Part shown: positions 40,896-42,548 of the stretch, in pieces
Position numbering within the stretch: position 1 is the first letter of the stretch
How the letters are laid out: each line of letters starts with the position of its first letter
Assembly (NCBI GenBank): GCA_040767805.1
Contig: JAXGNU010000004.1
Span: 1-64,000 of the forward strand
Direction of reading: 5' to 3'
DNA: 64,000 nucleotides
DNA from: Thermovirgaceae bacterium
Lineage (GTDB): Bacteria; Synergistota; Synergistia; Synergistales; Thermovirgaceae
Made by a program: the position numbers and the translations under genes
Notes under the pieces: model-generated
Databases searched by the model: none
Seen by the model: only the letters and a program-made list of their open reading frames with translations
Told to the model about the DNA's origin: nothing

Positions 40896-41061
40896 CCGTG
40901 AATCGTAAGTCGTAAATCGTGAGTCGTAAGTACCGTGAATCGTGAATCAGAAGAACCGTGAATCGTGAGTCGTAAATCGTGGGTCGAAAACCGTGAATCG
41001 CAAGGTCAAATTCATAGGCTGATCGTTTTGCTTTTACGTTTTGCTCTTACGATTCACGACT
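40896..41061. repeat. Heptamer tandem repeat array (CGTRART) with inverted copies; continues at 42368-42388 beyond the IS
   Basis: More than 10 CGTGAAT/CGTAAGT/CGTAAAT/CGTGAGT units, then reverse-complement units TTACGATTCACGACT. Confidence 0.85.
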
Positions 41062-41077
41062 CGTATATTCTTTCGTC

Positions 41078-41285
41078 GGTTCTAAAATGAACCCTGTAAG
41101 GCAGTAGGTTTCGGGACGGCGAAGACCGATTTACGACTGAGGCCCTAGAGCCTGTTCGTAAGATAGGTCTAGTCGTTCCCACCGAGAACGGACGGTATGC
41201 TTGGGGCCCGGTAAGCCCGCATTTACGAGGCCGTTCCCTGGGAACAATGCCGTCCCGACAAACCAACTGTAGCATTTCCTACGGG
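41078..41285 (+). ncRNA. Predicted bridge RNA of the IS110 element (ends approximate)
   Basis: Stem TCGGGACGGC/GCCGTCCCGA encloses four segments matching the target and donor halves. Confidence 0.78.
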
Positions 41286-41297
41286 GGTGTTGAAGCT

Positions 41298-42314
41298 ATG
41301 AACCAATGTTTTGTCGGGATCGACGTCAGCAAGAAGCAGATCCATGTCTGTGTCCTTGGCGAAAAGCCCCATCCCTACCCGAACTGCCTCACCGGGTTCC
41401 GGAAGATGATGAAAAGCCTCAGGGAGAAGAAACCCCATGGCGAAGAGACCTTCTTCCTCATAGGGATGGAGGCCACCGGTGTCTACCACCTCAAGCTCGC
41501 CACCTTCCTGAAGGACGAGCCCGATGTGGCCGTTTACGTCCTGAACCCCGCCCAGGTGAAGAGCTTCTTCAAGGCCTCCTTCCACAGGACCAAGACGGAC
41601 GCCATAGACGCCTGCGGCATAGCTTCGTGCACGGAGTTCCTGGTCAAAAGGGACAAGGTCCGTGCCTTCGAGACCCCCGACAACGAGGTCGAACGGCTCA
41701 GGCAGCTCTGCCGCCGCCGGGAGGAGATCCTCTCCATGGTCCAGATGGAGAAAAACAGGATCGAAGCCTTGAAGGAGGTACCATCCCACTCCGGGGAAGT
41801 GGAAAGCTCCCTCCTGGAGCACCTGGAGTACCTGGAGCAGCGCCTTAAGGATATCGAAGAGAAGATCAAAGGACACATACGGAACTCACCGGGACTCAAA
41901 GAGCAGGTGGACCTCCTCAAGTCGATACCGGGCATTTCCGATACCGCTGCCGCCGGACTCATCAGCGAGATTCGCTGCGCCGAGCGGTTCGACAATGTCA
42001 AGGAGCTGGTCGCCTTCGCGGGATTAGCGCCGGCGGAAAGGACCTCCGGTACCTCCGTGAAGGGCAGGACCTGCATCTGCAAAACTGGTTCGTCCAGGCT
42101 GAGGAAGCACCTCTACATGCCCGCCCTGGTCGGCATAAGATACAACCCCCTGCTGAAAGAGTTCTACGAAAGACTGACGAACCGCAACAAGCCCAAGAAA
42201 GCCGCTCTCATAGCCTGCATGCGCAAACTGCTTCACATAATCTACGGGGTCCTGAAGAACAGAACCGCCTTTGACCCCCTTTGGGCGAAGAACAGGTTCG
42301 CCATGGCCTGTTGA
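41298..42314 (+). CDS. IS110 DEDD recombinase/transposase
   Basis: GIDVSK, MEATG, KTDAIDA, SIPGI, GLAPAERTSGTS, ACMRKL. Confidence 0.95.
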   Translation: MNQCFVGIDVSKKQIHVCVLGEKPHPYPNCLTGFRKMMKSLREKKPHGEETFFLIGMEATGVYHLKLATFLKDEPDVAVYVLNPAQVKSFFKASFHRTKTDAIDACGIASCTEFLVKRDKVRAFETPDNEVERLRQLCRRREEILSMVQMEKNRIEALKEVPSHSGEVESSLLEHLEYLEQRLKDIEEKIKGHIRNSPGLKEQVDLLKSIPGISDTAAAGLISEIRCAERFDNVKELVAFAGLAPAERTSGTSVKGRTCICKTGSSRLRKHLYMPALVGIRYNPLLKEFYERLTNRNKPKKAALIACMRKLLHIIYGVLKNRTAFDPLWAKNRFAMAC

Positions 42315-42548
42315 AACAGATCGGCTTATGAGGGTTCATTATTTTCAAGGTTGACGGAAGACGGTATCTTACGATTAACGATTAACGGCCCTTTTATGGA
42401 TGAAGCAGATCAAAGAGGTTAAGGCCTCGGTCAATTAGTACCAGTCAGCTCAAGGCCTCGCAGCCCTTACACCTCTGGCCTATCGATCACGTAGTCTCCG
42501 TGTTACCTTACCCGCTTTATCCGCGGTGAGTGGTCTCATCTCGGGGCC

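Follow-up and report, generated by a model that had tools for sequence, protein, structure and literature searches.

Does the insertion sequence (IS) that lies between the 5S and 23S rRNA genes of a Thermovirgaceae bacterium carry, in its own non-coding left end, the RNA that decides where it inserts? The window, that is, the whole stretch of DNA analyzed, comprises positions 1 to 64,000 of contig JAXGNU010000004.1 (GenBank assembly GCA_040767805.1), and the element occupies 41062-42367 on its forward strand. A first-pass annotation had read the locus as an IS110 element with a bridge RNA, in which a left and a right target guide (LTG and RTG) are followed by a left and a right donor guide (LDG and RDG), all arranged about a CT core in the manner of IS621. 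The predicted loops, a recombinase with a DEDD domain and a catalytic serine, and the guide matches themselves all agree with that layout. The stretch 41062-42367 is very probably an intact IS110-group IS that moves by an IS621-type, bridge RNA-guided mechanism.

Results

Guide segments of the left end match the target and the joined ends

At the copy in the window, the target reconstructed from the flanks reads GATTCACGA-CT-TACGA, and the donor obtained by joining the two ends of the element reads GACGGTAT-CT-CGTATAT. The four guide segments that the first-pass annotation had located in the left end were all present as described (Table 1). The sole difference between the LTG and its target is a U.G wobble, with an RNA U placed opposite a bottom-strand G, and the RTG fits both full-length copies of the element in the assembly as CTTACGA and a truncated third copy as CTTACG. 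Complementarity continues beyond the RTG itself: the reverse complement of 41156-41165 is identical, over 10 contiguous nucleotides, to 42365-42374 at the junction of the right end and its flank. Here the AU that follows the RTG pairs with right-end positions 6-7, and the same AU together with the next A pairs with positions 5-7. Handshake pairing was found for the target loop and, in part, for the donor loop, where only the C of the two handshake positions (G41230 and C41231) is able to pair, with target position 6.

For the RDG, the match of 8/9 given by the annotation stands if the segment is read contiguously. The odd position is not a true mismatch, since under the discontiguous scheme of IS621, in which the two middle U residues are omitted, the RDG is a 7/7 complement of CTCGTAT. 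The core dinucleotide itself is present in the LTG (as CU), the RTG (AG) and the RDG (AG); in the LDG its pairing would require a G to bulge.

The chance of such matches was assessed with 20000 dinucleotide-preserving shuffles of the 236-nt left end. Matches as good as those observed occurred in 25 shuffles for the LTG, 459 for the RTG, 140 for the LDG and 372 for the RDG, and at least two guides matched together in nine. Because each guide match is rare in the left-end shuffles, chance was excluded as their source. The left end offers what characterizes a bridge RNA, namely two stem-loops with internal loops, the first of which reads the target and the second the donor. The donor and its guides are too conserved across relatives for a covariation test.

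Predicted fold of the left end and its covariation

The left end has a minimum free energy (MFE) of -94.7 kcal/mol (z -4.17), and 0 of 200 shuffles folded as well. With the guides kept unpaired, the constrained fold consisted of a 5' hairpin, a target loop and a donor loop, the two loops both lying inside a basal helix. The perfect 10-bp stem previously placed at 41111-41120/41249-41258 is present, and it forms part of a longer helix (41101-41120/41249-41270). The suggested check that the guides sit in internal loops gave a divided answer: they do so in the constrained fold, but the free MFE structure pairs the LTG with the RTG.

A covariance model (R1) was built from the window element and a relative with an 86% identical recombinase (L084). 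Run against 100 sources, R1 returned 39 matches, each of them on the plus (coding) strand just 5' of a recombinase open reading frame (ORF). In the resulting alignment (A5), which was fitted to the structure of the model and so favours it, 92.2% of cells are standard pairs, as against 64.0% in column shuffles and 34-46% with slid partners; even so, the contrast with slid partners and the count of double changes are clear. Double-sided changes were seen in 41 of the 45 pairs, including 18/19 of the enclosing helix, and within the target loop all five outer-stem pairs and three of the four inner-hairpin pairs covary.

Between the bridge RNA and the start codon of the recombinase lies a further G.U-rich hairpin (41271-41291) that includes a GGGGG run resembling a Shine-Dalgarno sequence. 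This hairpin could restrict translation from read-through transcripts.

The recombinase

The recombinase matches Pfam PF01548 (DEDD_Tnp_IS110, 2.1e-25) and PF02371 (Transposase_20, 1.4e-24). Residues 5-327 align by phmmer to ISCro4 (PDB 9t56, E 1.5e-42), the top-scoring solved structure by sequence, and to IS621 (8wt6, E 2.5e-41). Once a two-residue offset between PDB chain numbering and the numbering of the paper is allowed for, D9, E58, D101, D104 and S250-G251 align to D11, E60, D102, D105 and S241-G242 of IS621, and mutation of D11, E60, D102, D105 or S241 abolished recombination by IS621 (Hiraizumi et al. 2024, PMC11208158, available text). Residues D9, E58, D101, D104, S250 and G251 show no variation across an alignment of 22 relatives. 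Both hallmarks of the IS110 family were found, the four acidic residues in the N-terminal DEDD domain and the catalytic Ser-Gly (S250-G251) in the C-terminal Tnp domain, in an ORF that is open and has its catalytic residues complete.

Guides of related elements follow their flanks

The exact-protein cluster of the recombinase has 60 members; the next relative is 86% identical, and the following ones 47% or less. This 86% relative, L084, has the same ends and donor guides as the window element, and the four differences in its donor-binding loop fall in stems and the hairpin loop, none in the guides. Its target guides are changed, at three positions in the LTG and two in the RTG. The L084 LTG reads GGTTCACGTCT and the RTG is the reverse complement of CTCACGCA, with flanks ..TTTTCCGT-CT and CT-CACGTCTCACGC in which the core-proximal changes mirror those of the guides (..CGT-CT / CT-CACG..).

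The agreement between guides and flanks was also measured across more distant relatives. A conserved AGAU anchor after the RTG is present in 31 of the 39 R1 matches, and 26 of these are unique and have both flanks, the other five having been dropped as duplicates or for a missing flank. The match of the RTG to the flank averaged 4.54/7 in cognate pairs and 1.81 in 642 non-cognate pairs, and the best-window match of the LTG averaged 6.31/9 and 4.85, respectively. When flanks were permuted, the observed sums were reached in 0/10000 trials for the RTG and for the LTG, figures that overstate independence because the relatives are related to each other and conserved donor motifs served to locate their ends.

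Among one-per-species genomes, the closest relatives are at most 39% identical, which is too far for donor covariation. In 40 related genomes, R1 detected only distant RNAs (57-68 bits), in three genomes besides the element's own, and the IS itself was not found there; two relatives from Enterobacter (L040) and Klebsiella (L062) gave no R1 match at E <= 1.

Copies and boundaries of the element

In a genome of the same genus (G004), the orthologous 5S-23S spacer lacks the IS, and deletion of 41062-42369 from the window leaves a heptamer run equal in length and register to that spacer. Because one kept CT restores the register of G004, the element was defined as 1306 bp plus a CT core that is duplicated at both junctions. 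The layout is that of the IS110 group, with a long left end (236 nt), a short right end (53 nt), CT at the junctions and no long terminal inverted repeats.

A second full copy is present in the same assembly (G000:C6:71619-72926), with 100% identity over 1308 bp and the same ends. A third copy (L003, G000:C2:126000-126330, minus strand) is truncated to IS positions 978-1308 and is 99% identical. The copy in the window is flanked as ..CTTACGATTCACGA-CT / IS / CT-TACGATTAACG, the second copy as ..CCACGATTCACGA-CT / IS / CT-TACGATTCACG, and the truncated one as ..CGATTCACGA / (internal) ... CT-TACGGTTTACGG. The comparison of flanks that had been put forward as a check thus came out in favour of the proposal: the second copy has the same ends, and the motif GATTCACGA on the left with (CT) TACG[A/G]TT on the right is found at 3/3 copies. 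The identity of the two full copies argues for recent transposition, and the element has probably been active recently, with a target specificity of its own, as far as can be judged from its sequence.

The left breakpoint of the truncated copy abuts an intact GATTCACGA target half without CT, and the lost part comprises the core, all of the bridge RNA and two-thirds of the gene. A CT-core pseudo-site that might explain truncation at IS position 978 was searched for at this copy, and none was recognisable. The start codon of a like-oriented gene, whose product starts MKTIGLIGGLTWEST, follows ~35 nt to the right of the second full copy (L001 2810-2850, G000:C6), and read-through from the IS into this gene is conceivable.

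The window copy lies in the 23S-5S rRNA spacer, antisense to the operon (5S at 40767-40882 and 23S at 42415-45601, both on the minus strand). The insertion lengthens this spacer from ~220 to ~1530 nt (40767-45601). A single 5S gene is present in the assembly, which is 80.6% complete.

The target lies in heptamer arrays

The genome contains 53 arrays of at least two ACG[A/G]NYN heptamers, as against 10 in a reversed-sequence control, and many of them are just upstream of genes. The IS uses a rarer junction at which the heptamer unit reads ACGACTT, and it is this unit that supplies the CT core. The perfect unoccupied match to the guides (Table 1) is the sole 14-nt site with no mismatch in the 1.65-Mb assembly; one unoccupied site with a single mismatch is present at 40963-40976 (minus strand), and the reversed-sequence control contained no 14-nt site with one mismatch or fewer. 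Both unoccupied sites share the rRNA spacer with the inserted copy, at a distance of ~100-160 bp, and are inverted relative to it.

The intergenic DNA of the genome abounds in short, strand-biased tandem arrays of 6-7-mers (ACGATTY-type, GGAAACC, GCGTAAG and similar units), often immediately 5' of a ribosome-binding site; examples are 40897-41000 and 28026-28053 in the window, and G000:C6:41411-41466 and C7:4572-4627 elsewhere. In L084 (1-340 and 1315-1500), the target guides suit ACGTCTC-type heptamers, and the 23S-5S spacer of a genome of the same family (G005; L166) has ACGTCTC heptamers at the place of ACGATTA in the window genome. The target loop may accordingly follow satellite variants specific to each host, ACGATTY here and ACGTCTC for L084.

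A putative promoter across the joined ends

Across the junction of the would-be circle, the two ends together read TTGACG-N15-TATATT, which resembles a consensus promoter. In 23 of 28 distinct junctions, TTGAC[A/T/G] ends 13 nt before the core and is followed, after a 17-nt spacer, by TAT..T placed 2 nt past the core. For IS621, a promoter that straddles the junction of the circle has been reported (Durrant et al. 2024, PMC11208160, available text).

Neither a circle back-joint (42369>41062) nor a precise excision was listed among the contigs of four runs (two of RNA and two of DNA); contigs drop rare forms, so that this does not speak for their absence. Contigs that skip ~1650-1750 nt were considered as excision products and rejected: they join conserved parts of 5S and 23S, have sides of <50 nt and probably come from other organisms.

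Table 1. Positions in the window of the element, its bridge RNA and associated features.
Feature	Position	Strand	Basis
Unoccupied perfect guide match TTTACGA-CT-TACGA	40903..40916	-	sole 0-mismatch 14-nt site in the assembly
Left CT core copy (crossover dinucleotide of target/donor)	41060..41061	+	CT at both junctions, both full copies
IS110-group IS body	41062..42367	+	1306 bp excluding core; identical second copy; empty orthologous spacer in G004
Left non-coding end, 236 nt, bridge RNA-encoding	41062..41297	+	fold versus shuffles; R1 homologues directly 5' of recombinase ORFs
-10-like TATATT of putative junction promoter	41064..41069	+	starts 2 nt after core; same position in 25/27 other distinct junctions
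5' stem-loop	41070..41100	+	predicted in free and constrained folds
Basal helix, 5' strand; pairs with 41249-41270, encloses both loops	41101..41120	+	18/19 pairs covary; 89.7% of cells paired (A5)
Target-binding loop: outer stem 41123-41127/41166-41170, inner hairpin 41140-41153	41123..41170	+	constrained fold
LTG, core CT at 41137-41138	41128..41138	+	GATTTACGACT versus left flank plus core GATTCACGACT, 10/11, both full copies
RTG TCGTAAG, core-pairing AG at 41161-41162	41156..41162	+	reverse complement CTTACGA = core plus right flank, 7/7
Handshake-position AU, target loop	41163..41164	+	IS621 has A81/U82 here
Donor-binding loop: outer stems 41175-41181/41239-41245 and 41186-41190/41232-41236; inner hairpin 41204-41218	41175..41245	+	constrained fold; helices 4, 6 and 7 covary
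LDG GACGGUAU, then G (41199), then CU	41191..41201	+	41191-41198 GACGGTAT = 42360-42367, 8/8
RDG AU[UU]ACGAG	41221..41229	+	ATTTACGAG versus reverse complement of CTCGTATAT, 8/9 contiguous
Basal helix, 3' strand	41249..41270	+	folds, covariation
Recombinase gene, 338 amino acids: DEDD RuvC-like domain, coiled coil, Tnp domain	41298..42314	+	Pfam and PDB matches
Right non-coding end, 53 nt, last bases = left-donor sequence GACGGTAT	42315..42367	+	end sequences
-35-like TTGACG of putative junction promoter	42351..42356	+	ends 11 nt before core
Right CT core copy	42368..42369	+	junction sequences

Discussion

A number of points weigh against reading this locus as an RNA-guided mobile element of the IS621 type, among them the bias of the fitted alignment and the relatedness of the concordance set, mentioned above. 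Within the RNA, the open-loop form is 14 kcal/mol less stable than the unconstrained structure, in which the LTG pairs with the RTG; with a direct repeat as target, the two guides complement each other. The LDG carries a G at the first core position, which does not pair with the bottom-strand G unless bulged. Either this G bulges and the CU behind it pairs with the core, or the LDG pairs with seven right-end bases only; among relatives, the base after GUAU is C in most, and G, U (L094, L096) or A (L154) in others. A scan of 40000-46000 against Rfam 15 (E <= 1) returned only rRNAs and chance microRNA matches, with no family on the left end.

Expression and site choice supply the remaining points. 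In the integrated state, a scan of 40900-42450 for sigma-70 promoters and terminators found 0 of either, the absence of a promoter being the part that counts here, and the putative junction promoter, whose -35 box is 2 nt nearer the core in the window element and L084, has a spacer of 15 nt in these two, as against 17 nt in 26/26 others. RNA-library contigs from two metatranscriptome studies cover 40803-41109, 41080-41185 and 41256-42404 (X15) and 41106-42055 (X20). These contigs cannot show transcription or its starts, ends, strand or level, and their cover favours the bridge-RNA reading only weakly because such libraries can contain DNA. The LTG of L084 agrees with its actual left flank at only 7/11 positions. 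Finally, two metagenome contigs (L085 and L086) encode a 98% identical recombinase and have the same right end next to a non-heptamer flank, CT-TACACCTTTGAG, which agrees with the RTG through CTTAC only; these contigs do not include the left end, and the insertion they carry may be off-target or the work of a variant guide.

It could be that this member of the family has become fixed and essentially immobile; its guides would be a legacy of earlier activity, and the species would carry the copy in the rRNA spacer as a stable piece of its genome. Of the words sampled from the region spanning both junctions, a fraction of 0.97-0.99 is present in each of 14 DNA-type rows, which come from seven studies of anaerobic digester, sludge and biogas fermenter metagenomes and six of which may be the source of the assembly; in six RNA-library rows the fraction is 0.64-0.78. 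Perfect and one-mismatch targets a short distance away stay unoccupied, which speaks for this reading, as do the shortened spacer and the non-pairing G of the LDG. However, L084 has the N15 spacer and the G too, and yet occupies a different, guide-matched kind of site, so both features are compatible with mobility in this lineage. Immobility also sits poorly with two full copies that are identical throughout and with an open ORF whose catalytic residues are complete, and we regard it as distinctly unlikely.

Far less probable still is that the matches are not guides at all. The left end would then be merely heptamer-like (by chance or by acquisition from the arrays), and its structure would serve as a 5' leader controlling expression of the recombinase. 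In favour of this, the short tandem repeat that forms the target abounds in the genome (53 arrays against 10 in the control), the LTG and RTG are complementary to each other, and for another IS110 member, ISPpu9, it has been proposed that small RNAs modulate how the recombinase is expressed (PMC11208160, available text). Against it, the donor guides match the element's own ends and not heptamers, guides and flanks agree at the same loop positions in relatives whose targets are unrelated (permutations 0/10000), two or more of the four matches coincide in only 9/20000 shuffles, and the loop architecture, the conserved linker and the handshake positions all have counterparts in the solved IS621 RNA.

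If the element moves by the IS621-type mechanism, as we favour, analogy with IS621 would predict the following course. Excision would join the right and left ends around a single CT, and the joined ends would place the -35 box of the right end before the -10 box of the left end, giving an RNA of ~200 nt from the left end, which the recombinase would bind. The first internal loop would pair with the target GATTCACGA-CT-TACGA, a variant junction within the ACGATTY heptamer arrays of the host, and the second with the joined ends GACGGTAT-CT-CGTATAT, and the DEDD and Ser250 active sites would swap strands at CT. Judging from its sequence, from the two identical copies and from the naturally retargeted relative L084, the element appears to be both intact and programmable.

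A more elaborate reading, which we consider rather unlikely, is that the bridge RNA is structurally distinct and has a built-in restraint; a separate suggestion is that the target loop tracks host-specific heptamer satellites. The restraint would comprise a basal helix that clamps the loops into a three-way junction, the self-complementary target guides, the G of the LDG and the 15-nt spacer. A target made of tandem heptamers makes the two guides mutually complementary, so that a free target loop can zip shut. If this reading were true, these features together could tune activity or directionality.

As a natural bridge-recombinase system that is fully readable, the element offers a long, 7-nt RTG and natural handshake pairing, and L084, in which the target loop alone is rewritten, is a natural partner for a comparison of programmability. 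It also presents a probably RNA-guided IS homing to a genome-specific heptamer microsatellite, one array of which is inside the rRNA operon spacer.

Comparison with known systems

IS621 of Escherichia coli, a member of the IS110 group, has a 177-nt bridge RNA (Durrant et al. 2024, PMC11208160; Hiraizumi et al. 2024, PMC11208158), and what follows on it is limited to the available portions of these two papers. The left-end RNA of IS110 elements is described as having, after a 5' stem-loop, another two stem-loops, each with an internal loop, and bridge RNAs have already been predicted for thousands of IS110 orthologues (PMC11208160). The IS621 guides measure 9 nt for the LTG, 4 nt for the RTG and 8 nt for the LDG, and the strand numbering indicates that the LDG comprises seven left-donor bases plus the first core base (PMC11208158). 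Its RDG is formed by A157-U158 and C162-G165, with U159-U160 flipped out and G161 opposite dT12, and its handshake guides are at positions 81-82 and 166-167, with one of the two pairs a wobble in the wild type (PMC11208158).

The window element resembles IS621 in its three-domain recombinase with catalytic D, E, D, D and S-G, in having the RNA in a long left end opposite a short right end, and in its CT core. The order of 5' stem-loop, target loop and donor loop is the same, as are the strands read, with the LTG and LDG reading the bottom strand and the RTG and RDG the top strand. In the details of the RNA, the RDG has the form AU-UU-N-CNNG with two bases left out of pairing, an AU handshake guide follows the RTG (A81/U82 in IS621) and a GU linker precedes it (G72-U73). 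A promoter split over the circle junction, putative in the window element, and a target that is a short, repeated intergenic sequence are further points of likeness. The resemblance of the donors that the first-pass annotation had proposed was compared through the form of the RDG pairing, which fits.

The similarity of the two proteins is distant, although it extends over the full length (phmmer E 2.5e-41). The target specificity was rightly called new in the first-pass annotation: the target here is GATTCACGA-CT-TACGA in tandem heptamer arrays, whereas that of IS621 is ATCAGGCCTAC (PMC11208160). The RTG is 7 nt long and not 4 nt, and both loops lie inside a covarying basal helix of ~19 bp, in contrast to the separate stem-loops by which the text describes IS621. 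The LDG has G at the first core position where IS621 has C, the donor-loop handshake reads GC and only its second base is able to pair with the target, and the spacer of the junction promoter is 15 nt.

ISCro4 of Citrobacter rodentium (PDB 9t56), which according to the available record has been used as a bridge recombinase, was compared by protein only and belongs to the same family with the same catalytic motifs. The IS1111 group, with its seekRNA, likewise combines a DEDD recombinase with an RNA that guides to both target and donor; in the sources as available, its RNA is in a long right end and the elements have subterminal inverted repeats of 7-17 bp, whereas the RNA here is in the left end. 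Closer at hand are the metagenomic elements L087-L104, whose recombinases are 42-47% identical. These share the RNA architecture, including the basal helix (R1 51-66 bits), and the donor core ACGGTAT-CT-CATAT, and their guides match their own flanks. They differ in an RNA of 149-166 nt, a 17-nt junction spacer, direct-repeat targets of the CTCTGYG type and, often, a base other than U at the second core position of the LTG.

The RNA-guided mechanism and its breadth across the family are already published (PMC11208160, PMC11208158, available text), and the element is a new example of that mechanism and not a new mechanism; what is known of the mechanism is unchanged by it. Worth recording as differences are the helix around both loops, the G of the LDG, a junction spacer of 15 nt, target guides that are complementary to each other and a target that lies in a heptamer satellite.

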